A stretch of DNA of 62,187 nt from an uncultured bacterium (GTDB lineage: Bacteria; JAJVIF01; JAPKYR01). The translations under genes and the position numbers were made by a program. The notes under the pieces were generated by a model. That model was not told the origin of the DNA. It searched no databases and worked only from the letters and a program-made list of their open reading frames with translations. Each line of letters starts with the position of its first letter. Position 1 is the stretch's first letter. Positions 537-61,928 of the stretch are shown here, piece after piece. Location: contig CBDURU010000005.1 of assembly GCA_965369865.1 (NCBI GenBank), positions 1 to 62,187 of the forward strand. The letters run 5' to 3'.

Positions 537-788
537 GACCAATTCTGTTAATTAAAAATTGATTGGACATATTTAGTCGGTGACGCCTCTACGCCGAACG
601 GAGCGGAGCGTAGTGAAGCTTAGAGGTGTCTGATCTTATGGTGGTTCCTGAATTAAACTAACTGTAATGGGTAAGTCACCATAAGATGAGACACCTCCAA
701 AATCCAGGATGGATTGTGGAGGCGACACCGAATTTGTTTCATTTCCTTTGACCGATCTTGATTCGAGTGTTGTTTAACAGGATTGCTC
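537..788. mobile_element. MITE-like element (252 bp) of the GACCAAT-end family, copy A
   Basis: Ends GACCAATTCTGTTAA and TTAACAGGATTGCTC form imperfect TIRs, flanked by TAA (534-536) and TAA (789-791). The left 28 nt match the reverse complement of the right end of the 14089-14233 element at 23/28. Confidence 0.65.
577..731. repeat. Inverted doublet of REP-like hairpins (REPIN-like) inside the MITE
   Basis: TCGGTGACGCCTCTA pairs with TGGAGGCGACACCGA (13/15). GAGGTGTCTGATCTTATGGTG pairs with CACCATAAGATGAGACACCTC (20/21). Each half is also a hairpin on its own. Confidence 0.8.
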
Positions 789-4746: not shown

Positions 4747-4823
4747 TACCCGTACTGGCGGACAATTCTAACATAAGAGCGGAAAATATACTTATTTTTT
4801 TACATTTGTGTGGAAATCAGCAT

Positions 4824-4978
4824 GTAGCCCGGGAAACCAAATGATTATGATACCCGGCCTTTAATGAGTTCGGAAGGTTTCCCGGGGAATGGTGCAGTGT
4901 GATTGAATTATGTCTCCCGGGAACCCTTTTGTTAGAAATTGAAAAATTGCGAGATCACCATGTGGGTTCCCGGGCTAC
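4824..4978. repeat. GTAG-type REPIN-like element, copy 1
   Basis: Starts GTAGCCCGGGAAACC and ends GGTTCCCGGGCTAC. Two internal CCCGGGAA..TTCCCGGG hairpins in inverted orientation. Confidence 0.8.
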
Positions 4979-5051
4979 TTGCTGACCCAAAACTCAAATT
5001 TTCGAACCCATAACTCCAAATGACAGTCAAAATAGATGGACCTGGTGTCGA

Positions 5052-5987
5052 ATGGCAATTTGCCCTGGAATAGACTCGAGAAATTATTTCTCTACACTGG
5101 ATGTACCCGATTGGGTAATCAGAATCCCGACGATTAAAAAATTTTTCAATAATCCGGTCTTCAGGAGGAGAATCTCCCTTAGTCACCCGTTTGCGATCAT
5201 CACAAACAAGGTAGCATTCTTTATAGGCGTGGGGATCGGGTATTTTTTACCGCTCGTGCCCTACCTTGATACCTCTTCAGAGATAGAAATTCTCATAAAT
5301 ATTAATAAATATGCCGCCATAATTATGGTCATCAGATTACTTGGCCCTGTACTTATGTACAGCGCAAGGGGTATCGGGGAGATTTTATCCACAGACAAAA
5401 AAGATCCGATACTGACCACTCCGATCCGGAATGCTGACCTTTTTTATGGAATCTGTTACGGCAATCTCGCAAGGGGATGTAAGGTAATAGGTGTTGTTTT
5501 TACCTTTTGTATCGGAACCATAGTCACATATGTTGCGATCGCAGTGACGTCGGGTTTGCTTCAGATATTCCATGCGGGCCCATGGCTCGAAACTTTTTAC
5601 AACGGGATTGGGATCTTAGCGATAACCATCTGGTTTTTCCTGTTCGCGGTCTTAACTTTGTTGTTATTCACCTATTCAGCAGCGTATTTCGCAACATTTT
5701 TTGACTTCAGCTTATCGATTCTCCTTTCCATAGTTTATTCAACAACGATCCTTGTATTTGGGAGATTTTATGTTGTTGCCCCATGGCTTGGGGAAAATAT
5801 CCAGATTGTAAATGAACTGGGTTTCGTTTTTACCAAATTGGCAGGTTACATGGTCATACTTGGTGTGGTCGTTGTTATGGTTTATGGGACAGGCAGAGCC
5901 GGCTTGGCTAGATTCTCCCGCGCACGATGTCCAGGAAGATATAAGCCCAAACTCTACGGAGAGCCTGTAGCCCGGGAAACCAAATGA
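5052..5987 (+). CDS. Hypothetical multi-pass membrane protein (ABC-2 permease-like)
   Basis: About six hydrophobic segments and an ILTTPIRNADL motif. The last codons and stop come from the downstream repeat. Confidence 0.6.
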   Translation: MAICPGIDSRNYFSTLDVPDWVIRIPTIKKFFNNPVFRRRISLSHPFAIITNKVAFFIGVGIGYFLPLVPYLDTSSEIEILININKYAAIIMVIRLLGPVLMYSARGIGEILSTDKKDPILTTPIRNADLFYGICYGNLARGCKVIGVVFTFCIGTIVTYVAIAVTSGLLQIFHAGPWLETFYNGIGILAITIWFFLFAVLTLLLFTYSAAYFATFFDFSLSILLSIVYSTTILVFGRFYVVAPWLGENIQIVNELGFVFTKLAGYMVILGVVVVMVYGTGRAGLARFSRARCPGRYKPKLYGEPVARETK

Positions 5988-6154
5988 TGGTGATACCCAG
6001 CCTTTAATGAGTTCGAAAGGTTTCCCGGGGAATATGATGATATTGTTGGGATGGATTAAGGGAGTTTTTGTGATAGCTCGTTGATTTATTTCCCGGGAAC
6101 CCTTCGGTTAGATATTGAAAATGTGCAGAACCAAAAAATGGGTTCCCAGGCTAC
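5967..6154. repeat. GTAG-type REPIN-like element, copy 2 (direct repeat of 4824-4978)
   Basis: GTAGCCCGGGAAACCAAATGA...CCTTTAATGAGTTCG.AAGGTTTCCCGGGGAAT is shared with copy 1. Ends GGGTTCCCAGGCTAC; the central spacer differs. Confidence 0.8.
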
Positions 6155-6192
6155 TTGCTAAGTGATTTAATGATATTTAATACAAACACATG

Positions 6193-6561: not shown

Positions 6562-6741
6562 GATTGTCCTCCATCAATACTAAAGTTATGTTGATCTATC
6601 TATTTTTAAATCTGTTATAAAAAGTAAACTAGAATTTCTTTGGGGCTCCGCACGCCTGTGTTGCCAAGTTAGTTCGCATGTTTACAATTCTGAACGAGCT
6701 ACGCATCACCGCTTGTCGTTGGCACCAGCACTCACCAGTCC

Positions 6742-7851
6742 TCATACAAAATCAGATTTTGAGTTAGTATTATCCTCGTAATCTCTGATTGTTAGATCAC
6801 TGAAAATTAATTTAGATAAAATTACAAAGCTCGGAGATTCCTTACTAATGATTTTTCCACAATATTTCCAAGTTGGTATTGTGCAGCGGATTAACGTGCC
6901 TTCACCGGTGGAACTACAATGTATTTCATGACACCCAATGTTTAACAATAGGCTTTTTTCCCTCACACTTGCTGAAGATAATGAAATAGATTTTTGTTGT
7001 AGGTTATTATGGATTTTATCAATATCGAAATTTTGGGGCGACTCAAATTCTATCCATTCTATACGACCAACATTTTTCGCTAGTATTGGCTGAATTAAAT
7101 CAAATAGTTGTATCGTGCTTCCTTGTTGTATTGTTATCCAAACTAAAACGTTCTCATTATTGGTACTAGTTTTAACTTGGCCGAATGGAAAGCCTAGTGT
7201 TCTAGAGTCTTCATCGAGCATTGCACTGGGGAAATCATTTAGTAATCTAGCAATAGTAACGCCAATTACATCATTAGCCAAAGCACCATATTGTCTACCC
7301 TTACTATCCTGCTGATGAATCAATACTTTAGAAGTTAAAGGGATTTCCTCTGGAAATGGTTGTGACACTGTCAAACTTCCATTATTCTCAGATTCCATAA
7401 TACCTGATCCATTCTGCAATTTTGTAACTGGCTTTCCTGTAACTTTGTTCTCAAGCCAGCCTTTTAATTCACTGAGCCCCGAGTGAAAATTTTCCTCACG
7501 CAGATCAATATACTTGCGATCGATTAAGAGAGATGGTGCGTCGCATGATTTTAATAAAACTGGTAGGAGCTTAATATTACCAAGCTTTTTTTCCTTTCCA
7601 TGAGCCGATGTCCATTCAGATTTTACCCATCCCGATTTAATAGATGCTGGGGTTAGGATAACCGCTAAGTAGTCAGATTTTGAAATTCCTTCATTTATCT
7701 TTTCTGATATGCTGTCACCGTAATCAATTTCCCAATCATCATACCACACATCAATGTACTGACTCCTGAGAGTTTCAGCTATCTGCATAACTTCAGGTTT
7801 ATCATTACTGCTATGGCAAAGAAATATCTTTACTCTCCCTGGATGAGCCAT
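6742..7851 (-). CDS. TIR-domain protein (TIR_2) with uncharacterised C-terminal domain
   Basis: KIFLCHSSNDK, VWYDDWEIDYGDSI..KINEGI, SIKSGWVKSEW (catalytic Glu position), LLPVLL..C..P..L..RKYIDL. AT-rich. Confidence 0.88.
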   Translation of the reverse strand: MAHPGRVKIFLCHSSNDKPEVMQIAETLRSQYIDVWYDDWEIDYGDSISEKINEGISKSDYLAVILTPASIKSGWVKSEWTSAHGKEKKLGNIKLLPVLLKSCDAPSLLIDRKYIDLREENFHSGLSELKGWLENKVTGKPVTKLQNGSGIMESENNGSLTVSQPFPEEIPLTSKVLIHQQDSKGRQYGALANDVIGVTIARLLNDFPSAMLDEDSRTLGFPFGQVKTSTNNENVLVWITIQQGSTIQLFDLIQPILAKNVGRIEWIEFESPQNFDIDKIHNNLQQKSISLSSASVREKSLLLNIGCHEIHCSSTGEGTLIRCTIPTWKYCGKIISKESPSFVILSKLIFSDLTIRDYEDNTNSKSDFV

Positions 7852-7892
7852 TTTATAGCTCCTTTGTTTTTAAAATTATATCAAATCCCAAC

Positions 7893-10214
7893 CTACACCA
7901 ACGGATATCTTCTCTCAAACACAGGAAACTTCCTCGATAGCATCGCCTTCAATCCCACCATCGCATCCGGGTGTTTAAACGTCTCCACCAGATGTTGATT
8001 CAATTCGTACGCCGCGGATTCCTCGAGGTCGACACCCTTTAAATAATCATCGAAGCCCTTGCTGATGAGCCAGTTCGCTACCCATACCGCGTTCGGGGAA
8101 TTGGACGCGGCGCGGTTCGCGATACGTATCACCTGTTCCCTCCACGGCGATGTGTGGAACACCGTAGCCTCCCTCCTGCCGTACGAGTAGAGTGCGGGGA
8201 TAACGTCCTGCTTTAAAAAGAGCTGCTTCATGTAGTGAATTTCGTCCCTGTCGTCCTGAGTTAATTCGAGCGGGATCTCCTCGATTCCCAGCGCGTCGAT
8301 CTGTTCGCGTGTCAGAACCTTGCCATTGTTTTCGGTGATCGCTTTGCATAACCGGACCGCGACTTCATCCCTTTTGTTCGACGGCACCACAAGATCGGCA
8401 AGTCCGAAATGACGAAGCAGCCGTGGCGATGATGTAGTTGTGCCGCCCGCGAGGACGTAATAACGCGCCATAGCGAGCGCGAGTTCGGCGTCGCCGGTTT
8501 TCCGGTGGATGATCCTCGACAACATCAGTGTGCCGCGAAGTCCGGGGTAGATTCCAAGGCGGGTTTCGGGAAGCGCGAATGTCGTGCGGTTTGTCGCGAT
8601 AACAATCGTATCCGGGTCCCACGCGAACGCCATCGCCGTTTCGACCCCGCCGCCGAACGCCTGACCGTCGATAATCGCGATTTTCGGCTTGCCCGATCCG
8701 GTCATCTTGTGGAACATGACATCCTGCCATCGCTCGGTGCCTTTTTTGATCGCCTCGAAATTCCCCGCTTCCATATTTTCGACAAATTTCGGGACGTTCG
8801 CGCCGGCAATGAAAGTCTTGATTGGCGCTGTATCGAAAACGATTGTTGAAACATTTTCATCCGCGTTTGCTTTTTCGAATGCCGCTTCGAGACGGTCGAA
8901 CACATCGTCATCGAGAGCGTTTGCTGTCGTTGGAGAGTTCAACGTGATCCATGCGAGTTTCGTGTCCGGACATGCTTCATATTCGACCGGATTCGGATCC
9001 ATGTCGAGATTCGTCCCGGCGTCGGCCAGTGCCTTGAGGTTTTTGGGGATCGGGAAATGATATCCCTGTTTTTCAGCAAGTGCCGCGCGTTCTTCGACCA
9101 TTCGCCATGCTTCTTTGATTCCGACATCGTTGAAGAACGAAAATGGTCCCTGCCTCCAGAGGAACGCGTTTTTCGCAAGTATCTCGAAATCTTCGGGAGT
9201 GATAACACCGGCGTCGACAATCTCAAACGCGGTCGCGAATGCCACAGCAAGGAACCGCTCTTTTAATTTCGCGACAGTTTCCTTCTTACCCGTTCCCTTG
9301 CCGGGGCCGTCAGCGGGAAGCCATCGAACGCTCGATGGATCGTCGGCTTTCATTTGCTTTTCGACAAGCGCGCGAAAACTTCCGGTAGGTACAAAGAAAT
9401 TTTTATAGACCCGGTATAGCGGATCGGAGGGATTTAAGTCATCGGCGAATGAATCCATCGCGTAAAGGCCGATCGCCAGGCCGGTTACGTCCATGAGTCC
9501 AAGGAAACCCATCGGGAGCTTAAACGCGGCGCCTCCAGCTTTTTCAATGTCACCCTTATCAAAGCCCTCATCGACCATCCGGCACGCTTCGAGAAGCAGC
9601 GCGACGAAAAGCACATCCGCTGCGCCGCCTTTTCTGCTGGATGTGATGGGTGTCGAAACTTTCCCGCCCATTTTCATGTAATACATCGCCTTACGGATTG
9701 TTTCTTCGGATGCGGTATCGGTTCCGGCAACCTCACCGCCACGGTTTTTATGGGGTAGGTAGAAATAGTGCATCCATGCGACCTTGTCTTTTCGGTTAAC
9801 CGCTTCGGACAGGATGTTCGTGTTGAGTGAGGATGAATTGGTGGCGAGGATTACCTCGGGAGCGCAGAGATTATCGAGCTGCTGGAAGATTTTCGTTTTT
9901 ATATCGAGACGTTCGGTAGCGGATTCGATCGCTATTTTTAGATTCTTTCCACCGCAGGCGGTCGGATAATCGGTAGTGGTGAGGATTCGTTCCTGGATCG
10001 CGACGATTTCGTCATCGGAGAAAATTCGTCCACGCGCGGAGTCGAGTTCTTTAGCGATAGTTTTTCTGGCACGGATGAGGATGTCGTCGGAGATATCAAG
10101 GAGGCCGACGGTGAATCCGTTCTGGGCATAGGCCTGAGCGATACTGGAGCCCATCGTGCCGGCTCCGATTACGAGAATTTCGACATCGTTCCAGGTGTAT
10201 TTTTTATCAGTCAT
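7893..10214 (-). CDS. 3-hydroxyacyl-CoA dehydrogenase / enoyl-CoA hydratase fusion (dehydrogenase N-terminal)
   Basis: GAGTMG Rossmann motif, ESATERLDIK, LATNSSSL; crotonase half with TFIAGANV, AFGGGVE, FALPETRLGIYPG. Confidence 0.88.
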   Translation of the reverse strand: MTDKKYTWNDVEILVIGAGTMGSSIAQAYAQNGFTVGLLDISDDILIRARKTIAKELDSARGRIFSDDEIVAIQERILTTTDYPTACGGKNLKIAIESATERLDIKTKIFQQLDNLCAPEVILATNSSSLNTNILSEAVNRKDKVAWMHYFYLPHKNRGGEVAGTDTASEETIRKAMYYMKMGGKVSTPITSSRKGGAADVLFVALLLEACRMVDEGFDKGDIEKAGGAAFKLPMGFLGLMDVTGLAIGLYAMDSFADDLNPSDPLYRVYKNFFVPTGSFRALVEKQMKADDPSSVRWLPADGPGKGTGKKETVAKLKERFLAVAFATAFEIVDAGVITPEDFEILAKNAFLWRQGPFSFFNDVGIKEAWRMVEERAALAEKQGYHFPIPKNLKALADAGTNLDMDPNPVEYEACPDTKLAWITLNSPTTANALDDDVFDRLEAAFEKANADENVSTIVFDTAPIKTFIAGANVPKFVENMEAGNFEAIKKGTERWQDVMFHKMTGSGKPKIAIIDGQAFGGGVETAMAFAWDPDTIVIATNRTTFALPETRLGIYPGLRGTLMLSRIIHRKTGDAELALAMARYYVLAGGTTTSSPRLLRHFGLADLVVPSNKRDEVAVRLCKAITENNGKVLTREQIDALGIEEIPLELTQDDRDEIHYMKQLFLKQDVIPALYSYGRREATVFHTSPWREQVIRIANRAASNSPNAVWVANWLISKGFDDYLKGVDLEESAAYELNQHLVETFKHPDAMVGLKAMLSRKFPVFERRYPLV

Positions 10215-10236
10215 TTTTTAGTGTCCTTATTTATTA

Positions 10237-10264
10237 ATGGAGGCAGGCGGGACGCCTGCGTTAC
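10237..10264 (-). repeat. Single REP-like palindrome (family shared with 53507-53534)
   Basis: Minus strand GTAACGCAGGCGTCCCGCCTGCCTCCAT versus GTAGCGCATGCGTCCCGCCTGCCTCCAT (26/28). Confidence 0.75.
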
Positions 10265-10271
10265 GTTTTTT

Positions 10272-11531
10272 TTAATCCTCTACTTTGTCCAGGTAACTTT
10301 TCAGTATCAATGCTCCACCCTGTCCGCCGCCGATGCAGGCGGATGAAATTCCCATCCCGCCCTGATATATAAGCGCCATTGTCAGCCTGACCGCCGTCGC
10401 TCCAAGTGGATGGCCAAGCGCGATAGCGCCGCCCCACTTGTTGACTTTCTTCCGGTCAATTTCAAGCACTTTCTCAACCGCCATATATTGTGCGCCGAAA
10501 GCCTCGTTGATCTCGATGTTGTCGATGTCATCAAGCGTCATGCCGGCACGATCAAGCGCCATTCTGATAGCCGGTACAGGACCGATCCCCATGTATGCTG
10601 GATCGACACCGCATGCTGCCCACGAAATAAATTCAGCGATCGGTGTCAGGCCGAGCTCCTTAGCGTAATCTTCGGTTGTCAGGATCATCGCCGCGCCGGC
10701 ATCGACAATACCGCTGCAATTTGCCGCGGTTGTTACACCGTTAGGTTTTACAGGGATCATCCTTGAAAGTACTTCCATTGTAGTCCCAGGACGCATGAGG
10801 TTGTCATGCTCGACAAGTTTTACACCGCGACGTGTTGGAAGTTCGACCTGGGTGATTTCGCGTCCGAGATTGCCGTTATCGCGAGCCTTTCCGGCTTTAT
10901 GCTGACTTTCGTAAGCCAGTTGGTCGATGTCCTCACGCTTAATATCGTAATACCGCGCCAGGTTTTCCGCTGTGTCCATCATGTCGATATTAGTGTAGGT
11001 ATCTTTTAAACCGTCCATGAAGAGGAAATGTGCGTGGGGACCACCCATGTAGGGAAATCCGTACGCGGCTCCGTAGATGACATACGGTGACTGCGACGTA
11101 CTTTCATAGCCCCCCGCCAGGACCATTTTTGAATCGCCTGTAATTAATTCTTTTGCAGCAAGGGTAAGCGATTCTCCACCAGACCAGCAGATTCGATTGA
11201 CGGTAAAGGCGCGACTCGACCACGGAATTCCCGCTTTCAGTCCGACATGACGTGCGCCATAATGTGAATCGAGCGACGTGTGCTGGGCGTTACCCATAAT
11301 CACCTGGTCGATTAATTCGGTGCGGTTCTCAAGTCCCGCCTGTTTAATAGCGCCTTTAGCAGCGAAAACACCGAGATCGATTGGATTGACGTCCTTAAAA
11401 TCTGTACCAACCGCCGTAAATGGGGTCCTTGTGGCCGAGATTACGACCACTTTCACCCCCAATTTTTTCATTAAATCGACGGCACCACCGCCAACTGGTG
11501 GTTTATCGTCGTAAATCGGTATCCGGTCCAT
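10272..11531 (-). CDS. Acetyl-CoA acyltransferase (thiolase)
   Basis: TVNRICWSG (Cys), EINEAF, GAIALGHPLGA (His), ACIGGGQG (Cys). Confidence 0.95.
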   Translation of the reverse strand: MDRIPIYDDKPPVGGGAVDLMKKLGVKVVVISATRTPFTAVGTDFKDVNPIDLGVFAAKGAIKQAGLENRTELIDQVIMGNAQHTSLDSHYGARHVGLKAGIPWSSRAFTVNRICWSGGESLTLAAKELITGDSKMVLAGGYESTSQSPYVIYGAAYGFPYMGGPHAHFLFMDGLKDTYTNIDMMDTAENLARYYDIKREDIDQLAYESQHKAGKARDNGNLGREITQVELPTRRGVKLVEHDNLMRPGTTMEVLSRMIPVKPNGVTTAANCSGIVDAGAAMILTTEDYAKELGLTPIAEFISWAACGVDPAYMGIGPVPAIRMALDRAGMTLDDIDNIEINEAFGAQYMAVEKVLEIDRKKVNKWGGAIALGHPLGATAVRLTMALIYQGGMGISSACIGGGQGGALILKSYLDKVED

Positions 11532-14064: not shown

Positions 14065-14088
14065 TACGAATAATTAAACTGGAATTAA

Positions 14089-14233
14089 GACCAATCCCAC
14101 TTAACAGGTATTTTTTGCTAACTGTATTTCCGGAGTTCTCATGGTGGCCCCTCGTAAAATCGGCCTGAGCGCCAGCGAAGGCAGGTTTTAGGAGGGTCTG
14201 ATACGAATCGATATTTAATTAATGGGATTGGTC
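14089..14233. mobile_element. MITE (145 bp) of the GACCAAT-end family, copy B
   Basis: Perfect 11-bp TIR GACCAATCCCA / TGGGATTGGTC, flanked by TAA and TAA. Near-identical copy at 61258-61402. Contains a GGTGGCCCCTC..GAGGGT hairpin. Confidence 0.85.
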
Positions 14234-16353
14234 TAAGTCCCTGATCTTATCCACTCGATAACCATTTGCAGAGCATCGTCGGCCAGCAGGGCAGGATGGT
14301 TTCCTGACTCCATTAAAACAACAAGTGAGCTGCTATCAGGATCACCGGGAATAATCGACCCCGATTCCATCGCGGTTTCAAACGTGGACAGGTCGAGCCC
14401 TCCAAGGGCATTCGACCCATGGCATGTTAAGCATCCAGCTTCAAAAATCGTCGCGATGTTGTCATCCCATGCCTGGGCCATATCCATGGTTTCCCGCGCA
14501 TCCGCCTCGCTGGTTGAAACAATGTCAGGGGTAGAATCAAACAATGCACCATCCTCAATCCACGCTCGCACAGTAATGATATCCTGATCAGAAAGCAAAA
14601 CAGGATGGCTTCCGGATTCCATTATTATGATAAGTGAACTGTTATCGGGATCACCGGCTGTTATCGAACCCGAATCCATAGTTGATTCGTATGTGCTTAA
14701 ATCAACGCCACCCATGGCGTTCGTTCCATGGCATCCGGTGCACGAGGGTTCGAAAATGGCTTTAATATCGTTCTCCCATGTAACTAATAAAACTGTTTCC
14801 AATTCGGGCATAACCGGCTCAATGACATCGAATTCCATACTTGAAGCCAGTTCTGTCTCACGAAATTCCCGTGCAGCATTCTCCAGTGTCATCCCGGATG
14901 GTGCACCATTCAAAATCCACTCATGTACTGCCATAAACTCGGAGCTGGAAAATTGGCCCGGGTGTCCCCCGGCTCCAATTTTAATAAGGATCTGGCTCTC
15001 GTCGGGAGAGGAAAGTCTTATTACGCCTGAATCCATTGTTGAGTAATATGTTCTCAAATCCAGATCATGAAAAGCGCTTACCCCGTGGCATTCCATACAT
15101 TTGGCTTTAAGGATTGCCTTTATGTCGCTGGACCAGGTCATCATGGAAAATTGTCTGATCTGTTCCGGTGTCAGGTTACGCTCTCTTGGCGCACCGTTTG
15201 AAATCCAGTCATGGACGATAGCTACTACCCTGTCGGTTATTCGGTCGGCATGGTTATCATCACGCAAAATAGCCAGGATTGAGCTTTCATCTGGCGCGCC
15301 GGGACTTATCAGGCCTGAATTCATAACGGAATCGTAATCCCGGAGGTTAATTCTCCCATCCACAGTATTTTCATGGCACCTTACACAGTTGGTCAGGAAG
15401 AGACTGGAAAGACACGTTTTCCAGGTGTAAGTGAAGGTTACGGAAGCAAGCTCAGGCTGGGAGGTTAAAGGCTGCACAGGCTCAGTTGGCCGGTTCTCAT
15501 ACGGAGTACTTGTTTCCACAGGAGTGTAAATTGTTACGTTTTCCGATGGTATTACTGTCAGAATAGAGGTCCCTTCAAAGTTCACGAAATAGAATACACA
15601 CGCTAGAAATACACCGCAGATGAATAGATATTGTGGAAGGAAAGTATGCCACCATTTAGCAATGAGTGACTTGTCAACAGGATAGACTGGCAATCCGTTT
15701 TTTAAGTCAATCGATTCAAGAGGATGCCCGGATCCTGCTGCATCCGGAGAGGATGAGGAAGCGGTAATTATCGCGTTCAGGCGTTTCATCAGGAAGAAAT
15801 AAAAATGCCAGACGAGCATTGCCAGGACGGCGAGTATAGCTTCGGCACCGTGGGCGACTTTTGCCATGGGTATGATAACTCCGGGCAACAGCCTGGTGGT
15901 TGCTATCGGGTTCAGCATGAAAAAACCCGTCAGAACCATTATGAGCGATCCCCATGTTAATCCCCAGAAAATTGATTTTTCAGAGAAGCTGTATCTGCTC
16001 TCCGATGATTTATCGGGAGAAATCCCAAAGTTGTATTTTAATGCCTGGGTAATGTTCTTAAAGTCACGGGCAACAGGTGTGATCGTAAACGGGTTTTTCC
16101 TTATGTATGCCTTGTAATGCGCGGTCCCGATATAAAACAGGATTTCAAGTATGAAAATGAAAGCGCAGATGTGGTGAACTATCCTCATCGTTTCAATACC
16201 CCCGAAGGACTGTATAATCCATTCGGAGAACGCGGCCTGTGAATACATTTGAGAGAGCCCCGTAATTGCGAGAAGCAGGAAATTTATAGCGAGAATCCAG
16301 TGCTCAATCCTATCCGTTAAAGAAAACCTGATGAACATTATCGATCGGTACAT
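14233..16353 (-). CDS. FdnI/HydC-type di-heme cytochrome b fused to four monoheme cytochrome c domains (planctomycete cytochrome c-like)
   Basis: TM His pattern RIEHW, RIVHH, VAHGAE...VWHFY; four repeats of W..I..IF...CxxCH..LDL.TY....SG.I.PG.PD.S...H.....WI..G with CVRCH, CMECH, CTGCH, CLTCH. Confidence 0.85.
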   Translation of the reverse strand: MYRSIMFIRFSLTDRIEHWILAINFLLLAITGLSQMYSQAAFSEWIIQSFGGIETMRIVHHICAFIFILEILFYIGTAHYKAYIRKNPFTITPVARDFKNITQALKYNFGISPDKSSESRYSFSEKSIFWGLTWGSLIMVLTGFFMLNPIATTRLLPGVIIPMAKVAHGAEAILAVLAMLVWHFYFFLMKRLNAIITASSSSPDAAGSGHPLESIDLKNGLPVYPVDKSLIAKWWHTFLPQYLFICGVFLACVFYFVNFEGTSILTVIPSENVTIYTPVETSTPYENRPTEPVQPLTSQPELASVTFTYTWKTCLSSLFLTNCVRCHENTVDGRINLRDYDSVMNSGLISPGAPDESSILAILRDDNHADRITDRVVAIVHDWISNGAPRERNLTPEQIRQFSMMTWSSDIKAILKAKCMECHGVSAFHDLDLRTYYSTMDSGVIRLSSPDESQILIKIGAGGHPGQFSSSEFMAVHEWILNGAPSGMTLENAAREFRETELASSMEFDVIEPVMPELETVLLVTWENDIKAIFEPSCTGCHGTNAMGGVDLSTYESTMDSGSITAGDPDNSSLIIIMESGSHPVLLSDQDIITVRAWIEDGALFDSTPDIVSTSEADARETMDMAQAWDDNIATIFEAGCLTCHGSNALGGLDLSTFETAMESGSIIPGDPDSSSLVVLMESGNHPALLADDALQMVIEWIRSGT

Positions 16354-21031: not shown

Positions 21032-21073
21032 AAATTGAAACAACATGCGCGGGAATCGTATGGCATGGTGGAT

Positions 21074-21476
21074 GCCACGATGTTTATAACTTAAGAGTAA
21101 TGACCGGTGGCCCCTCAAAACATCGGCCTGAGTTTACGAAGGCCGATGTTTGGAGGGTGCCCCTAAACCTTCTAATCTGTTCATGATTGCCGGAACCCTC
21201 CTAAAATCTGCCTTCGTAAACTCAGGCGGATTTTATGAGGGGCCACCGATGTTTATAGCTTAAAAGTAATGGCCTGTGGCCCCTAAACCTTTTAATCCGG
21301 TCATGATTGCTACAACCCTCCTAAAATCTGCCTTCGCTGGCGCTCAGGCGGATTTTATGAGGGTGCCTCTAAACCTTCTAATCTGTTTATGATTGCTGTA
21401 ACCCTCCTAAAATCTGCCTTCGCTAGCGCTCAGGCGGATTTTATGAGGGGCCACGATGTTTATAGCTTAAAAGTAA
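21074..21476. repeat. BIME-like cluster of four REP-like hairpins with conserved linkers
   Basis: GGTGGCCCCTC..GCCTGAG..CGAAGGC..GAGGGT at about 21106 (+) and about 21195, 21315 and 21401 (-). Linkers CCCCTAAACCTTCTAATCTGTTCATGATTGC x3 and GATGTTTATAGCTTAAAAGTAA x3. Confidence 0.88.
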
Positions 21477-27006: not shown

Positions 27007-28248
27007 ATGAACACGACATTGTGTGAAGGAATTGACTGGGTAGGGTACGTGGACTGGCATGTCCGCGATTTTCATGGTTACCAGACTGATCGCGGGGCGA
27101 CATACAATGCGTATATTATCAGGGATGAAGTAACAGTCCTGATTGACACTGTTAAAGCCCCATTCAGCGAAAAACTTCTTCGAAACATCAAATCATTCAC
27201 CGATTTAGACAAGGTGGACTTTGTGGTCTGCAATCACGCGGAACCCGATCATTCGGGAAGTTTGCCTGTAGTGATGAAGGCGATGCCCGACGCAACTCTG
27301 GTATGCACCGCCAAGTGCGAAAAAACACTCACGCATCATTATGATACTTCCGGGTGGAAATTTCGGATTGTTAAAACCGGAGATAAAATCCCGTTGGGTT
27401 CCCGCAGCATGGAGTTTATCGAAACTCCCATGGCCCACTGGCCGGAATCGATGTTTACATACATTCCTGAAGAAAAGATCTTATTCTCTATGGACGCTTT
27501 CGGGCAGCATTACGCGACATCGCAAAGGTTTGATGACGAGGTGAAACTCAGCACGGCGATCGATGAAGCGAAGATTTACTATGCCAACATTCTCATGCCG
27601 TTCCCCCGGCAGTGCAGGAAAGCTCTTGAGGATGCCGGGAAACTCGAAATCGAGATGATCGCTCCGAGCCACGGGATTATCTGGAGAAGCCATATTGAGG
27701 AGATAATCGAAAAATACAGTGAGTGGGCAAACAATCAGGTGAAGCCAAAGGTCGTTGTGATTTATGACACTATGTGGAACTCGACAGGTGACATGGCGGA
27801 GACAATTTATGAGGGCGCGAACAGGCCGGGTGTTGAAGTTGTATTGATTCATATCCGCCGCACGACTTTAACAAGGATCGCGACAGAAATCCTCGATGCG
27901 TCCGCGGTGGCATTCGGCTCCGCGACGCTTAACCGCGACATGATGCCGATGGCGAGTGCTGTTATGACTTACCTGAAAGGTTTAAGGGCCGTGGGTAAGG
28001 TTGGATTCTCATTCGGATCGCATGGTTGGGGCAGGGGAGGCCCTGAAGCGATCGAGGATCAATTTAATGAGTTAAAATGGGGAGTACTCAGGAAACCGAT
28101 AAAATGTAAATACGCACCAACTCCCGAAGTTCTCGATGAATGCAGGGCGGCAGGTCGCGAGCTTGCGGAGTGGGCGTTCGATATGGGCAGCGTTTGGAAG
28201 GCTGACTGGACAAAGGGTCTTGAGGAATCGAACTGGCTGGGCGCATAG
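27007..28248 (+). CDS. fprA: Class A flavodiiron protein (O2/NO reductase)
   Basis: GATYNAY, NHAEPDHSG, HWPESM, DAFGQH, IAPSHG; flavodoxin domain YDTMWNST, FGSHGWG. Confidence 0.95.
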   Translation: MNTTLCEGIDWVGYVDWHVRDFHGYQTDRGATYNAYIIRDEVTVLIDTVKAPFSEKLLRNIKSFTDLDKVDFVVCNHAEPDHSGSLPVVMKAMPDATLVCTAKCEKTLTHHYDTSGWKFRIVKTGDKIPLGSRSMEFIETPMAHWPESMFTYIPEEKILFSMDAFGQHYATSQRFDDEVKLSTAIDEAKIYYANILMPFPRQCRKALEDAGKLEIEMIAPSHGIIWRSHIEEIIEKYSEWANNQVKPKVVVIYDTMWNSTGDMAETIYEGANRPGVEVVLIHIRRTTLTRIATEILDASAVAFGSATLNRDMMPMASAVMTYLKGLRAVGKVGFSFGSHGWGRGGPEAIEDQFNELKWGVLRKPIKCKYAPTPEVLDECRAAGRELAEWAFDMGSVWKADWTKGLEESNWLGA

Positions 28249-28329
28249 GTTTGTCCGGAGGTTACACAGCCTGTAATATTCTGACAGAGTACAGTTTTTA
28301 AAATCTATATAAAAAGGAGAGACTTAAAT

Positions 28330-28494
28330 ATGCAAAAGTACATATGCGATGTGTGCGGATGGGTTTACGATCCCGAGGCGGGTTTGCCTGATGAGGATAT
28401 CAAACCCGGTACAAAGTTCGAGGACCTTCCGGATGATTTTGTATGCCCGGAATGTGGCGTGGGCAAAGACGAATTTTCCCCGGTAGAGGAATGA
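28330..28494 (+). CDS. rub: Rubredoxin (54 aa, absent from the ORF track)
   Basis: Translated by hand: [54 protein letters not shown]; AAGGAG RBS. Confidence 0.97.
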
Positions 28495-28527
28495 TTAGCG
28501 AATAGCAGTTCCTTAAAATTGTACTTA

Positions 28528-28553
28528 CCCCACAATCAAGTTGTGGGTTTTAT
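28528..28553 (+). terminator. Intrinsic terminator of the oxidative-stress operon
   Basis: CCCACAA-TCAAG-TTGTGGG followed by TTTT. Confidence 0.65.
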
Positions 28554-28576
28554 TATCTACTACATTGCCCCGTTGG

Positions 28577-28670
28577 TTGATTTGTTAATCCATCCCGATT
28601 AAAATAACCAAAGAGATTATGTCAGGCTTAAGTACAGCCATCCCGGTCTCGCGGGATGGCTGTTTTTATT
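28577..28670 (+). promoter_or_regulatory. Promoter plus short leader with terminator/antiterminator (pan RNA motif-like)
   Basis: TTGATT-17bp-TAAAAT (28577-28605); 12-bp perfect hairpin ACAGCCATCCCG/CGGGATGGCTGT plus T tract; 5' GAGATT can pair with GGTCTC in the hairpin loop. Confidence 0.55.
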
Positions 28671-28683
28671 TCCGGTGATATCG

Positions 28684-30336: not shown

Positions 30337-30369
30337 CTTGACCCTTATGGCGATCTTCCATATCCTGTC

Positions 30370-42841: not shown

Positions 42842-42857
42842 TTAAGAAAATTTACCA

Positions 42858-43001
42858 GGGGACACCTGCTTTTCACATGGCGTGAAAAGAGATGTCCCCA
42901 TTATTTATCCCCATTATTTATCTACAGGGGACTGGCAAACAAATTTACCGGCTATGTTAAAGGGGACACCTTCAACTCTGGAAGAGTGGAAAGGCGTCCC
43001 C
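42858..43001. repeat. Two GGGGACACC...GTCCCC hairpins
   Basis: Hairpins at 42858-42899 and 42962-43001, each followed by a short tandem duplication (CCCCATTATTTATC x2; CCGATTAGTTCT x2). Confidence 0.65.
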
Positions 43002-54620: not shown

Positions 54621-54799
54621 GACCCCCCCTATAATCCCCCCTGTGGGGGGATGGTTTCTTAACCTTCCCACCATGTTGGGTCACTCCAACACCTCCCCCC
54701 CATGATGGGAATTCCTAATACCTCCCCACCCCTGTAATCCCCCCCATGATGGGAATTCCTAACACCTCCCCCCCGTAGGGGGGGATTAAGGGGGGGGGC
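54621..54799. repeat. C/G-run palindromic element with internal duplication
   Basis: CCCCCCCTATAATCCCCCC at the left pairs with GGGGGGATTAAGGGGGGG at the right; CCCCCCATGATGGGAATTCCTAA.ACCTCCCC occurs twice. Confidence 0.75.
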
Positions 54800-58754: not shown

Positions 58755-61205
58755 ATGTTTAGATGGACCTTTGTGGTCGCAACAATAGTACTGGCATTGT
58801 TCGTTGCGATAGGATGTTCTGAGGGTAACGGCGGAAGTCCTGCGACGCCGTCAACCAATCCAGACCTGACGTCCGGACCAGGGCAAACCGGACAAGCTCA
58901 GAATCCAAACACTTCATTGCTTGGATACTACGATATCTATTTCGATGTCGAAAGCCGGACGATGCAGATTGTTGAGGATCGCACGGCGAGTTTCACCATC
59001 AACATCATTCCGCTTCTCAATCAGATGACCAGCCCACATAACGGACTCACGATTAGTCTTCTTTATATAGATGAATCCGATCCGAATCTAATAAAGGTCG
59101 ATGTAGATTTACAGTGGTACCATCCATTCCCGACTCAGGATCAGTTCAAGGTCTATGACTTCATGGGTGTTATAATCAGCAACGGCGATTCGACTCTTAA
59201 CTACCATAACCTTAGGGTCGGAAACTATGGCACGGACACATATATGACCAATGCCGATGGTTACACTCGCTGGTTTAACCCATCCGAGTTCACCTCCGAG
59301 GGTTTTTTTGGATGGACACCTGGTGGAATCCAGAACCTGGAAGGTACCGCAAAAGTGAATCCGTACAAGGCCTTCGGCAAGGGACTCAATATACATGGAG
59401 ATCTCTGGGACTGGCTCGAGGGCGGATCAAATAACGATGGTGTGTTCAAGTCTGGTGCTGGCAGAAGGATGAAACTTGAGTTCCCGATACCAAATGACGG
59501 CCTTGTGTTTGGTTTTGCCGTGGTCTGCTGCTGGGAAAATCAGGGATCGGGTCCATACTCCCCGTACCATCGCGCTGAGCCGGTTGCTTTCAGGGTTACC
59601 GTGGAAGACGACCTTTACTACGATGGTACTGCTTCGTACGGTAACCTGATTGCCGATATCGATGTCTGGGCCTGGGGTGCTCAGCCCTCTACGGTCCTGG
59701 TCGAATCGACAGTTCTCTCCGGTATAGAAACCGCCGCACCGACCGGCGGTGGCGGAGCCAACTGGTCAACATACTCTATCGATATTCCTGCTGCTCCGAT
59801 TTCTTCGATCGATGGTCACGAACTGTGGGTAATCGCTGAATGTGATAGCTACAACTACATTAACGTCCCAGGTGTTTCTGCACCTCCAGCCTCTGAACCT
59901 TTGGCTGCGTTCTACAGATTTCCGTTGTTTATCGCAGATACTCCTTACAACACCTGCCCGGTTATCGATGACGTGTATGATGATGTCATGGGCCCGGGTG
60001 GGGGTATGCTTGAGTTTGTTCCTTCGGGCACGGGTATAATCACCTATACCTGCGATGCACACGATGTTGATATGGACACCCTGACATTCACCTGGTATAT
60101 AACCGATGATGGTGTCGCGCTCGATACATCGACAGATGGTATCCCGGGTAACGCTATCGACTGGTATCTCAATTTCGGTCATGGTCAGTGGGACCTTTAC
60201 GTGGGTGTAGATGATGGTTCGTGCGAGACCTTCGGTGGTCCGTACGATATCTGTGCCAACGATACTGGTGCAGCAGCCGTTGCCGGAGAACCCGAACCAA
60301 GGTCAGACAGTGTCCAGACATACGATGTCCAGGCTTATACTGATACGGATGGCGATACACTCAGTTGGGATTGGACCATTACGGATGTAAGTACCGGCGA
60401 TCCCGTAACAACAGGTTGGACAGATAACTTTGATGGCTCAATCGAGGTTGACTGGACTGCGGTTGGTGCCGTGTATTTTGATGAGTACACAATCGACTGT
60501 GATATTATCGACATATGCCAAACCATTCCCGCTGATACGCTTGATATTACAATCATTGATCTTTTTGAGGAGCAATTCGATACGAATCCAGGTGACTGGG
60601 CGTATGCTTACTACCAGTACTGGTCGGGTTGTTCCAACCCAACGGTAGGCTACTCAACTGCATCACCCTGGCACACCGCCACGGGCTCAATCCGGTACCC
60701 GCCAGGTGCTGGTGGAAGCAACGGTGGCAGCCTGCAGACAGTTGTAACTCCTCCATTCTATATATCTGTCAGTGCCTCAGAGGTATTCTTAAGGATCTGG
60801 GCCTGCGAGGGATTTGCTGACTCCTGGGACGGATACATGAATTCGAACTTCAAGATTGTCGAATCCTCAACTCCTGGTCTTTCTCCGTTCATCAGCGGCG
60901 ACCCAGCACCACTACCTGCCGGTGGCGCTTACCTGCAGAACTCACTCGCTCACGGCAGCTCCGGATGGGATATCTACCAGAACAGTCCCTGCTACATCGG
61001 TCCTCTCGCTGGCCAGCCTGGTTGGACAGGTGACAAGGGCGGTGGTGAGAACCCGGAAAGCCTGACCATGTACCTTGACCTGATCATCCCGGCCAGCTTC
61101 TTCGGCAAGACCGTCAAGGTCGCTTTCCAGTATTCACCCGACTGGTGCGGTTTGTCCTCTGGTGGAGCTTTCTCGATGGATGATTTCGAGCTCTGGACCA
61201 ACTAA
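58755..61205 (+). CDS. Large surface lipoprotein (conserved N-terminal domain, Ig/PKD-like repeats, C-terminal beta-sandwich)
   Basis: FVAIGC lipobox, G/S/P/T linker, D.D.DTL.(F/W).W.IT repeats, LFEEQFD...MDDFEL C-terminal domain. Confidence 0.75.
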   Translation: MFRWTFVVATIVLALFVAIGCSEGNGGSPATPSTNPDLTSGPGQTGQAQNPNTSLLGYYDIYFDVESRTMQIVEDRTASFTINIIPLLNQMTSPHNGLTISLLYIDESDPNLIKVDVDLQWYHPFPTQDQFKVYDFMGVIISNGDSTLNYHNLRVGNYGTDTYMTNADGYTRWFNPSEFTSEGFFGWTPGGIQNLEGTAKVNPYKAFGKGLNIHGDLWDWLEGGSNNDGVFKSGAGRRMKLEFPIPNDGLVFGFAVVCCWENQGSGPYSPYHRAEPVAFRVTVEDDLYYDGTASYGNLIADIDVWAWGAQPSTVLVESTVLSGIETAAPTGGGGANWSTYSIDIPAAPISSIDGHELWVIAECDSYNYINVPGVSAPPASEPLAAFYRFPLFIADTPYNTCPVIDDVYDDVMGPGGGMLEFVPSGTGIITYTCDAHDVDMDTLTFTWYITDDGVALDTSTDGIPGNAIDWYLNFGHGQWDLYVGVDDGSCETFGGPYDICANDTGAAAVAGEPEPRSDSVQTYDVQAYTDTDGDTLSWDWTITDVSTGDPVTTGWTDNFDGSIEVDWTAVGAVYFDEYTIDCDIIDICQTIPADTLDITIIDLFEEQFDTNPGDWAYAYYQYWSGCSNPTVGYSTASPWHTATGSIRYPPGAGGSNGGSLQTVVTPPFYISVSASEVFLRIWACEGFADSWDGYMNSNFKIVESSTPGLSPFISGDPAPLPAGGAYLQNSLAHGSSGWDIYQNSPCYIGPLAGQPGWTGDKGGGENPESLTMYLDLIIPASFFGKTVKVAFQYSPDWCGLSSGGAFSMDDFELWTN

Positions 61206-61234: not shown

Positions 61235-61256
61235 CCGGCTTTCCAGCCGGGCTTTT
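61235..61256 (+). terminator. Intrinsic terminator
   Basis: CCGGCT-TTCC-AGCCGG followed by GCTTTT. Confidence 0.6.
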
Positions 61257-61257
61257 A

Positions 61258-61402
61258 GACCAATCACACTTAACAGGTATTTTTTGCTAACTGTATTTCC
61301 GGAGTTCTCATGGTGGCCCCTCGTAAAATCGGCCTGAGCGCCAGCGAAGGCAGGTTTTAGGAGGGTCTGATACGAATCGATATTTAATTAATGGGATTAG
61401 TC
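61258..61402. mobile_element. MITE (145 bp) of the GACCAAT-end family, copy C
   Basis: Matches 14089-14233 except two substitutions seen by eye, both in the TIRs; flanked by TTA and TTA. Confidence 0.85.
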
Positions 61403-61928
61403 TTACGTGTTCCGGGCATGGTTTGTATCCTGGAAGTGGTGGTTTTCTATGTGCCGATACAATGCCGGTGGGACATATGTCTGCAAGGGCGGACCTGTTT
61501 TCCGGGCGGATCTACTCGCCGAACTACCGGCCGAATACTGAAAATAGCTGGAATCCGGCTCTCCTTCCTGATTTAATATTACCTCATCAAATAATATTAT
61601 AGTTGTCCTCCCATGGGATTATCCCATTTCAAATTATCTGGGTTATAGAAAAATATTGCAAGCATTCGTAAACTAACTTGTTGAATCAATAATTTTATGC
61701 TACCGTATATAATGAGTCTCAAGGTTATCAATCGGCAAGATAGTTGGTAATGGTGGGTTTCTATCTATAATTACTGTATTCAGGATTCTTCGGTAAGCAA
61801 TTTTAATATCGGTAAAATATAGTCAAAGTAGCTATAAAACAATAAATTCTGCTGTTATGGGAAAATTATGGTTAATGCGCTAGGGCGTTAATAATAAAAT
61901 ATTGAAAAATGCATAAGGAGGCAACAGT

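Follow-up and report, generated by a model that had tools for sequence, protein, structure and literature searches.

An element of 145 bp (el1) in the genome of an uncultured bacterium raises the question of whether a REP-like hairpin can travel as the interior of a MITE. The element was found in the window, as the whole 62,187-nt stretch of DNA analyzed here is called, and its hairpin core also occurs there in a cluster that lacks terminal inverted repeats (TIRs). In the available text of reviews of bacterial repeats, REPs and MITEs form two distinct classes of small repeats, each with its own enzymes, and no mention of REP-MITE hybrids or of REPs as MITE cargo was found there.

The TIRs of el1 are perfect over 11 of 11 nt (14089 to 14099 and 14223 to 14233), and the element with its flanks reads TAA-GACCAATCCCA...TGGGATTGGTC-TAA at 14086 to 14236. 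Its DNA is predicted to fold into a central hairpin (z = -2.87 for the whole element). No ORF of 60 or more amino acids was present inside el1 or el2, and a known RNA family was rejected as the identity of the element, as the window contained no Rfam match. The TAG stop codon of the ORF at 14233..16353 (minus strand) is supplied by element base 14233 together with the right copy of TAA, and at the empty site the equivalent ORF terminates in ACT-TAA. A second element, el2 (TTA-GACCAATCACA...TGGGATTAGTC-TTA at 61255 to 61405), shares 98.6% identity with el1 over 145 nt (two mismatches) and lies directly after a terminator-like hairpin with a T-run that belongs to the ORF at 58755..61205. Both el1 and el2 are at the 3' ends of genes. 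Together with a further copy on contig C115, the two are 98.6 to 99.3% identical across ends and core. The third element, el3 (TAA-GACCAATTCTGTTAA...TTAACAGGATTGCTC-TAA at 534 to 791), combines a standard left end and a degenerate right end with two other hairpins, H1 (about 577 to 634) and H2 (about 674 to 736). The sequence-only reading of this DNA had described two 145-bp elements differing at two positions, with GACCAATC-type inverted ends and a 3-bp duplication of their own (TAA and TTA), as well as a third element at 537 to 788 with homologous ends, TAA on both sides, and a different interior; all of this was recovered.

Table 1. Features of the MITE family and its hairpins in the window
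Feature	Position	Strand	Basis or remarks
el1, 145-bp MITE, G-core subfamily	14089..14233	+	sequence, alignment, DNA fold
el1 left arm, found only in G-core subfamily	14100-14139		
el1 REP-like hairpin G	14140-14197		
el1 right end, typical of family	14198-14233		
el1 TAA target duplication, left copy	14086..14088	.	
el1 TAA target duplication, right copy	14234..14236	.	
el2, second G-core copy	61258..61402	+	alignment; flanks TTA 61255-61257 and 61403-61405
el3, 252-bp member	537..788	+	flanks TAA 534-536 and 789-791
TIR-less cluster, four hairpin-G copies	21074..21476	.	matches to el1 core
Cluster hairpin-G copy	21106-21158	+	
Cluster hairpin-G copy	21195-21247	-	
Cluster hairpin-G copy	21315-21363	-	
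Cluster hairpin-G copy	21401-21458	-	
Hairpin A, free copy (this hairpin forms the core of the most frequent members, of 122 bp)	42857..42900 (approximate)	+	no MITE ends near

Using a 34-nt terminus profile, 53 family termini were identified in this genome (G000) at E<0.1, and 93 sites at E<=10. A 15-nt terminus with up to two mismatches occurred 67 times in the genome, compared with seven times in the reversed genome. The elements range from 77 to 304 bp, with inverted ends of approximately 30 nt in the 122-bp members, which are the commonest of the family. Their layout consists of a left end of ~45 nt, an interchangeable hairpin slot, and a right end of ~35 nt, and the inverted ends are of the GACCAATCCTGTTAA... 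or GACCAATCC... type; at least five unrelated interiors are carried by this one family of ends. Many left ends without a partner are also present, and the genome as a whole is full of modular repeat arrays. When a 30-nt degenerate TIR pattern was used as a query, it matched only 22 loci of one sister MAG among genome contigs and had no match in metagenome contigs or viral contigs. Thus, el1, el2, and el3 are members of one lineage-specific MITE family.

The flanks of the elements were examined across the family. Forty-eight of the 53 termini abut TNA and 41 are flanked by TAA or TTA, two trinucleotides that together make up 3.0% of those in the genome. Identical 3-nt flanks were found at 15 of 19 complete copies in this genome, so that matched duplications occur at other genomic copies as the sequence-only reading had anticipated, and at nine of 14 copies at the sister-MAG loci. 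In a control that took the adjacent 3 nt farther out, the counts were 1 of 19 and 0 of 14. Across both sets, the matched pairs comprised 14 TAA, seven TTA, two TCA, and one TGA, while nine of the 33 complete copies had no matched flanks. The left and right flanks covary, and TAA and TTA each occur in either orientation, in every case as a matched pair. The duplication had been described as TWA; the strong preference for TWA stands, but the target is TNA, given the matched TGA and TCA pairs. These pairs and the occurrence of TAA and TTA in both orientations also exclude a TA duplication of the IS630/mariner type with one extra base, and the covariation of the two flanks excludes an IS200/IS605-like insertion beside a fixed target without duplication.

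Empty orthologous sites were identified in the congener G001 for five of six tested elements of G000, in a comparison that took in a truncated copy (C13:20514-20657) whose empty-site reading is ambiguous. The G001 sites lacking el1 (C20), el2 (C57), and el3 (C396) carry one TAA, a single TTA, and a single TAC, respectively, and a copy of el3 with 98% identity is located at a different locus of G001 (C239). Six of 14 sister-MAG elements had an orthologous site in G000, all six empty; for the other eight, no single G000 contig contained the orthologous site. In one case, insertions of G001 and G000 are only 42 nt apart, each being absent from the other genome. In total, 12 insertions compared between G000 and the congener or sister MAG were empty in the other genome and reduced to one trinucleotide, as had been anticipated: the duplicated trinucleotide was present exactly once at 10 sites, and a single diverged trinucleotide at two. 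Among environmental contigs, one from run X3 joins 14085 to 14234, skipping 148 nt, and thus lacks el1; in run X2, several stretches outside el1 had no contig cover, an observation given no weight here. As the sister-MAG loci may belong to the very genome represented by G001, and the environmental runs bridging the el1 site may include source samples, few independent genomes stand behind the empty sites. The MITE family is fully turned over between the two congeneric genomes, and its anatomy, flank statistics, and empty sites show that the elements insert with a 3-bp duplication. With TIRs, a fixed-length duplication, no coding capacity, and empty sites all found, the interpretation as a TIR-bounded MITE family holds.

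Which enzyme mobilizes these ends was approached through the duplication itself. A 3-bp TNA/TWA duplication is a hallmark of the IS1031, IS427, and ISL2 groups, and the duplications observed here fit this type, making an IS5-family DDE transposase (IS1031-group or PIF/Harbinger-like) a tentative candidate that we regard as slightly more doubtful than probable. PIF/Harbinger elements are described as generating a 3-bp TWA/TNA-type duplication in the available text of PMC2213677. Against this candidate, none of the four IS5/Harbinger families PF01609, PF13586, PF13359, and PF13340 had a match in G000 or G001, and PF13586 was found in 0 of the 14 genomes of the phylum examined. The DDE_Tnp_1 genes of G002, G004, and G010 were rejected as the parent because they lack similar ends, and the GACCAAT... 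termini are unlike the IS5-family termini in the part of PMC4596501 where these are tabulated. A fragment resembling IS630 at the G001:C488 contig edge was likewise rejected, no family terminus following it, and no rve (PF00665) or IS630 (PF13358) transposase with family ends was found. Searching the 4 kb around each terminus for a partner end yielded no autonomous element; ORFs adjoining candidate long pairs and all solo ends encoded only housekeeping or secreted proteins, and an all-against-all comparison of 5,745 ORFs for multicopy proteins returned only secreted beta-propeller-like paralogues. No full-length copy with these ends was found in the incomplete G000 assembly or at the sister-MAG loci, and pattern scans that covered genome, metagenome, and viral contigs found none either. 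As the assemblies are fragmented (95.7% and about 82% complete, in 190 and about 630 contigs), the absence of a transposase weighs little either way. The IS5/IS1031-type mobilizer and the full IS with the same TIRs proposed by the sequence-only reading were thus not recovered, and in their absence the type of duplication is the only link to IS5.

Copies of the interior hairpins lie mostly outside the MITE. Hairpin A was identified at 76 loci (12 inside complete elements), hairpin B at 66 (two inside), hairpin G at 21 (eight inside), and hairpin H2 at 19 (one inside); by inspection, 11 of the 21 hairpin-G loci are in complete or partial el1-type copies. Hairpin A was seen between at least three further kinds of recurring flanks and is itself interrupted by a multicopy sequence, for which a search through relatives gave only a similar intergenic stretch in G006 that has no transposase next to it. 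The cluster at 21074 to 21476 contains, as had been noted from the sequence, the el1 core without TIRs. Its four copies share 76 to 94% identity with nt 52 to 109 of el1 and are separated by REPIN-like spacers, with 30-nt direct repeats at 21071 to 21100, 21240 to 21269, and 21447 to 21476. The orthologous site in G001 (C325) lacks the whole cluster and retains one copy of the 30-nt repeat. The cluster was therefore gained relative to G001 with neither a TIR nor a TNA duplication, and free hairpins follow a mode of gain different from that of the MITE.

Hairpin G is REP-like in character, being a multicopy, extragenic, imperfect palindrome that forms inverted doublets (C147, 6291-6348/6384-6438; C82, 209-263/299-353; and the first two cluster copies in the window). 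On contig C147, a hairpin-G doublet and tandem half copies are located 50 to 320 nt downstream of a gene (6610-7170, minus strand) that matches the REP-associated tyrosine transposase (RAYT) model NF047646 over the full profile, at 90.8 bits against the NCBIfam cutoff of 80 bits. Only one flank of this gene is visible, as the contig ends 15 nt past the gene start. The genome contains 13 Y1_Tnp matches, with five of nine tested passing the RAYT model; RAYT-model genes, for which the sequence-only reading had suggested looking, are thus present, one of them beside the hairpin. By eye, GTAG follows the hairpin in the free C147 copies and one window copy, on the side opposite to its classical position. 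From the adjacency at this one locus, we infer that the C147 RAYT may mobilize hairpin G. Because the modules lie mostly outside the element and a hairpin-G doublet sits beside a RAYT-model gene, a TIR-bounded element with a target duplication that carries a REP is supported. Junctions, orientation, and the exclusive left arm are constant among the G-core copies, which are 90 to 99% identical from end to end, and near-identical composites with G and with H1 plus H2 occupy different TNA sites; hairpin and ends have moved as units. Of the proposal that REPs hitchhike in DDE-mobilized MITEs, the REP-like hairpin moving as a unit with a TIR-bounded element is supported, while the IS5-family parent is not.

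It is unlikely that the hairpins represent no more than the MITE's own interior, with free copies representing decayed elements and RAYTs playing no role. Approximately 15 of 50 free hairpin-A copies retain, by eye, an inner segment of the left end of the MITE; some free copies are thus remnants of MITEs, and independent copies number at most as many as were counted. A 77-bp copy also resembles a 112-bp copy minus the hairpin, and truncated MITEs can resemble REPs according to the available text of PMC10969869. Decay does not account for the hairpin-G doublets on C147, on C82, and in the window cluster, which have no family ends at all, for the gain of that cluster without TIR or duplication, for the other flank contexts of hairpin A, or for the number of unrelated interiors. 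Far less probable still is that each hairpin-bearing copy arose by a separate REP insertion into a resident MITE, the MITE being a target and no vehicle. Mobile DNA inserting into REPs and REP clustering are described in the available text of PMC3184786, and the interruption of hairpin A is a local case of insertion into a hairpin; this reading conflicts with the shared junctions, orientation, left arm, and full-length identity of the G-core copies, and the G001 sites of el1, el2, and el3 lack the whole composite rather than the hairpin alone. A BIME-like recombination mosaic in AT-rich spacers with coincidental TWA flanks, for which the repeat arrays and partnerless left ends could be cited, is scarcely credible, as 24 of 33 copies have matched flanks, compared with 1 of 33 when the flanks are shifted as a control, and the 12 precise empty sites already refute it.

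Taken as a whole, a mobile MITE family with a slot for REP-like hairpins, which are carried passively, is probably the correct explanation. A hypothetical transposase acting in trans would recognize the ~30-nt inverted ends, cut TNA targets (mostly TAA or TTA) with a 3-bp stagger, and insert the element there, leaving the duplication. The slot between the left and right ends holds different REP-like modules (A, B, G, H1 plus H2, and others), each a repeat family of its own with most copies outside the MITE, and a module in the slot is copied passively whenever the ends are mobilized, as the composites with G and with H1 plus H2 show. Fixed junctions and orientation suggest that entry into the slot occurred apparently once per module, and RAYT-type insertion, hairpin-to-hairpin recombination, and template switching are conceivable routes. 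A broader reading, which we consider possible but somewhat short of an even chance, is that the DDE-type MITE is a shuttle whose slot is loaded by REPs of several RAYT-type families, offering them a second, RAYT-independent and TNA-targeting route of spread by which approximately half of the hairpin-G copies would have arrived; its mobilizer would perhaps belong to a family unrecognizable in the 14 phylum genomes examined.

Like Tourist-like PIF/Harbinger MITEs and IS5-derived bacterial MITEs (IS1031/IS427/ISL2), the element is short and noncoding, has TIRs, duplicates 3 bp (TWA/TNA) at AT-rich intergenic targets, and occurs in many copies whose insertions are polymorphic between relatives; unlike in those, neither a cognate transposase nor an element of full length was found here, and the interior is an exchangeable REP-like hairpin with no remnant of a deleted transposase. 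We know of no target duplication generated by RAYT-type elements, whereas approximately half of the hairpin-G copies here are inside a TIR element, arriving with a target duplication. The hairpin is also longer (55 to 58 nt) than classical REPs (20 to 40 nt), and MITE-borne copies lack the GTAG seen after free copies. What is shared with the REP/REPIN-RAYT systems of Escherichia coli, Pseudomonas, and Stenotrophomonas, as presented in the available text of PMC3337134 and PMC3733652, is a G+C-rich imperfect palindrome that is multicopy and extragenic; inverted doublets and an adjoining RAYT-model gene are further likenesses. Many RAYT paralogues are present in this genome, as in that of the planctomycete R. 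baltica according to the same portion of PMC3733652. In the composite MITE BrickBuilt of Porphyromonas gingivalis (PMC4596501, available text), the interior is also another kind of repeat and size variants of one end family occur, but that interior is a tandem repeat (minisatellite) rather than a REP family that is dispersed and paired with a putative enzyme, and the duplications are irregular, unlike the fixed 3 bp here. BIMEs and the REP-targeting IS1397 and IS621 (PMC3184786, available text) similarly show modular combinations of REPs and motifs and the physical nesting of two mobile-DNA classes. However, BIMEs have no TIRs or duplications, and IS1397 and IS621 are found within the REP; here the nesting is the reverse, the REP being inside the transposon and travelling with it.

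These composites have a practical consequence for annotation, as repeat finders will split or wrongly merge them and they break metagenome assemblies. With at least five hairpin interiors in one end family and one interior tied to a RAYT gene, the family offers a concrete system for asking how REP families escape dependence on RAYTs, how MITE interiors are exchanged, and whether the hairpin is of use to the host or to the element itself; one example would be termination, el1 and el2 being at gene 3' ends. If the shuttle reading is true, the family would document cross-class hitchhiking between HUH-mobilized and DDE-mobilized nonautonomous elements.

The elements el1, el2 and el3 in the window are members of a genuine MITE family that is specific to its lineage, was active recently, and duplicates a TNA target. 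As the sequence-only reading had described, el1 and el2 mismatch at 2 of 145 positions and carry their own 3-bp duplications (TAA/TAA and TTA/TTA, respectively), el3 has related ends and TAA/TAA flanks around a different interior, and the el1 core recurs without TIRs; four such copies match it. Both el1 and el2 start with GACCAATC... and terminate in ...GATTGGTC or ...GATTAGTC, and their 11-nt inverted repeats are perfect in el1 and match at nine positions in el2. In the source genome (G000; 3.70 Mb in 190 contigs, the window being all of contig C5), the 15-nt terminus with up to two mismatches was found at 67 sites, versus 7 in the reversed genome, and a 34-nt terminus profile identified 93 sites at E ≤ 10 (22 below 1e-3, 31 from 1e-3 to 0.1, and 40 from 0.1 to 10). 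The most frequent member is 122 bp, consisting of a left end of ~45 nt, a 40-nt perfect-stem hairpin designated A (GGGGACACCT...AGGTGTCCCC), and a right end of ~35 nt. Complete copies in G000 and in a sister Planctomycetota MAG measure 77, 112, 117 to 123, 134, 145 to 148, 156, 194, 207 to 210, 244 to 259, or 287 to 304 bp; el1-type copies in G000 comprise eight that are full or nearly so, three partial copies, and three contig-edge pieces.

Among GTDB species representatives other than G000, a 30-nt degenerate TIR pattern was found at only 22 loci, all in the sister MAG, and it had no match in metagenome or viral contig collections. By BLAST, the family is plentiful in the congener G001; G002 and the remaining members of the taxonomic family show weak matches or none. 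The short contig C115 starts with a 207-nt tandem period of alternating el1-type and A-type pieces, and on this contig an el1 copy adjoins the terminus of another member, with one TAA common to both. MITE ends often lie just 3' of the stop codons of genes for secreted repeat proteins (WARTWGGS...DFDPG motifs), which form large, multicopy families; contig ends cut several of these genes.

Coordinates of the elements, hairpins, and associated features
Feature	Contig	Position	Detail
el1	window	14089-14233	
el2	window	61258-61402	
el3	window	537-788	
ORF at el1 site	window	14233..16353 (-)	706 aa
Free hairpin-G cluster	window	21074-21476	
el1-core copies without TIRs	window	within 21106-21458	four copies
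Sequence bounding and punctuating G cluster	window	21071-21100, 21240-21269, 21447-21476	26-30 nt
GTAG-tagged REP-like repeat	window	4819-4983, 5962-6159	two copies, long-looped hairpin starting GTAGCCCGGGAAACC
Direct repeats rich in C runs	window	54665-54774	three of 37 nt (TCCCCCCCATGATGGG...)
RAYT-model gene	C147	6610-7170 (-)	90.8 bits (cutoff 80)
RAYT-model gene	C100		129.5 bits
RAYT-model gene	C80		132.2 bits
RAYT-model gene	C58		106.3 bits
RAYT-model gene	C7		102.7 bits
Truncated el1-type copies	C6, C13, C47	34392, 20514, 24147	
Alternating MITE pieces	C115	1-320	
Secreted repeat-protein genes	C120, C23, C4, others	8447-10375, 27858-30362, 7410-10400	
GAGGTTGTCCC/GAGATAGTCCC sites, examples	C16, C103, C165, C118	49507-49551, 1-45, 5473-5522, 1-50	contig ends
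GAGGTTGTCCC/GAGATAGTCCC site	C154	1457-1518	
GCTGTTCTACG block	C148, C29	1011-1054, 11094-11300	examples
Inverted repeats around DDE_Tnp_1 gene	L056 (G004:C330)	1323-1338/2883-2898	perfect, 16 nt, 1.5 kb apart
IS630-family (DDE_3) fragment	G001:C488	2-115	C-terminal, contig edge

The trinucleotide abutting the 53 termini with E < 0.1 was TAA in 22 cases, TTA in 19, TGA in 4, TCA in 3, and another in 5, where TAA and TTA each make up 1.5% of G000 trinucleotides. Identical 3-nt flanks were present in 15 of 19 complete G000 copies (nine TAA, five TTA, one TGA), the four mismatched copies lying on C16, C62, C52, and C73, and in 9 of 14 complete sister-MAG copies; the next three bases outward were identical in 1/19 and 0/14. 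Three truncated el1-type copies, two false end pairs, one nested copy, and one contig-edge copy were left out of this count. In the element's left-to-right orientation TAA and TTA both occur, matched without exception; thus, the trinucleotide is duplicated target and not element sequence. A 2-bp TA duplication is ruled out by these pairs together with the matched TGA and TCA pairs. The duplication is 3 bp, as proposed earlier, and mostly TAA or TTA, but the target is TNA, wider than TWA.

Orthologous flanks in G001 were 91 to 96% identical to those in G000, and five sites filled in G000 were empty there: el1 (...GGAATTAAGTCCC..., single TAA), el2 (single TTA behind the same terminator hairpin), el3 (single TAC), C13:23136 (single TTA), and C2:13145 (single TTA). 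A G001-specific insertion lies 42 nt away in the C2:13145 spacer, at a TTA present once in G000; the site of a sixth element, the truncated C13:20514 copy, was ambiguous. Six of the 14 sister-MAG elements had both flanks on one G000 contig, and all six G000 sites were empty, with the exact trinucleotide once in five and a diverged one in the other. Filled sites thus reduce to one trinucleotide, diverged at el3 and at one sister-MAG site. None of the 12 comparisons of G000 with G001 or the sister MAG showed a shared insertion, so the family has transposed after the two lineages diverged. At the el1 site, a contig from the public run X3 lacks the element (14085 joined to 14234, 148 nt skipped) and one from run X4 joins 14078 to 14233 with six other letters in between; the runs may share an origin with G001 and the sister MAG, so they do not count as independent evidence. 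The TAA target of el1 overlapped the stop codon of the 706-aa ORF, which was rebuilt at the same codon by the last el1 base and the duplication (14233-14236; TAG here, TAA in the empty G001 site), leaving protein length unaltered.

Duplications of 3 bp (TNA) are typical of the IS1031 group, and the duplication type points to an IS5/Harbinger-like enzyme. For PIF/Harbinger, PMC2213677 gives a 3-bp TNA/TWA target duplication. An IS5-family parent, as suggested earlier, did not emerge: no IS5-family or Harbinger domain was found in the G000 or G001 assemblies, no PF13586 in the 14 genomes examined from the phylum, no rve or IS630 domain in G000, no long pair of family ends that would mark an autonomous element, and no transposase-like ORF adjoining solo ends. 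Binned assemblies often lose transposase genes, so the missing mobilizer is weak negative evidence. The DDE_3 fragment in G001 has no MITE-like terminus after it. A block of ~44 nt with up to 53 copies in G000 includes ...GCTGTTCTACG...; at L056 in G004, this sequence forms the inverted repeats that surround a DDE_Tnp_1 gene. The block may represent another MITE family, one whose parent can be identified.

At least five kinds of interior occur within the one family of ends: A; B (~100 nt, long-looped); A+B; a GTAG-tagged hairpin+B; and H1+H2 (el3) or G (el1). Each interior hairpin is a repeat family in its own right, with 76 loci in G000 for A (12 within complete elements), 66 for B (2), 19 for H2 (1), and 21 for G (8). 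By inspection, el1-type copies, whole or partial, hold 11 of the 21 G loci; one further locus adjoins a copy of this type, and nine are free (two each on C147 and C82, one on C50, four in the window). Of 72 A loci with readable flanks, 22 lie within 130 nt of a MITE terminus; by eye, ~15 of the remaining 50 still have the inner portion of the left end, and two more groups (~10 and ~6) each have other recurrent flanks. Hairpin A therefore serves as a component in several composites, and its "free" copies include remnants of MITEs. A hairpin related to the GTAGCCCGGGAAACC repeat lies 3' of MITE left ends at C11:24391 and sister locus L046:67-353.

Thirteen Y1_Tnp matches were found in G000, 12 above the Pfam cutoff; nine were scanned with NCBIfam, and its model for REP-associated tyrosine transposases (RAYT) was passed by five, narrowly missed by three, and matched weakly by one. 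Downstream of the C147 RAYT-model gene lies a hairpin-G copy 96.6% identical to the el1 core, followed by a 35-nt spacer starting TGTAGC, an inverted second copy, and four tandem half copies; this link is seen on one flank, the other lying off the contig. Several further Y1 genes are bordered by repeats of their own. By inspection, none of the 13 genes has a MITE terminus within 3 kb, so the MITE ends do not correspond to the RAYT-associated TIRs reported in PMC3733652. Those are TIR-like repeats that flank RAYT genes and carry a GGGGWSAS motif; as it happens, hairpin A conforms to this motif. The proposal that REPs travel inside DDE-mobilized MITEs is supported as regards the cargo, with its REP-type hairpin core and G doublet beside a RAYT-model gene, but no DDE mobilizer was found in these assemblies.

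MITE-borne G copies are 95.7 to 100% identical to the el1 core and free copies 76 to 96.6%, the nearest free copy being the RAYT-adjacent one. Junctions and orientation are uniform among G-core elements, their 40-nt left arm has no match anywhere else, and a copy 98% identical to el3 sits at another locus in G001, indicating that the composites transposed as units. Each would have been loaded once, before it moved. The free G cluster in the window is absent at the orthologous G001 site, where the 26- to 30-nt sequence that bounds and punctuates it in G000 as a direct repeat is present once and neither TIR nor TNA duplication accompanies the difference; free hairpins therefore multiply by another route. 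Free REP arrays seem to grow along with a long duplication of flank.

An unassembled multicopy sequence with two similar ends of ~40 nt (GAGGTTGTCCC... and GAGATAGTCCC..., at 10 and 8 G000 contig ends) nearly always splits hairpin A at one place in its 5' arm, MITE-borne hairpins included. The flanks imply an 8- to 9-bp duplication, and the sequence resembles an insertion sequence that targets hairpins, which, if true, would add up to three nesting levels. A similar sequence in G006 lies between genes, and no transposase adjoins it.

In a limited search of open-access text, including passages of PMC3184786, PMC10969869, PMC3733652, PMC4596501, and PMC3189936, no description was found of a REP family inside a MITE with TIRs and target duplications; the closest parallels were IS elements that insert into REPs (PMC3184786), the RAYT genes with TIR-like flanking repeats mentioned above (PMC3733652), and a MITE with a minisatellite as its interior (PMC4596501). 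What is new relative to known MITEs is the interior, in which REP-type hairpins are interchangeable and one of these hairpins is linked to a RAYT.
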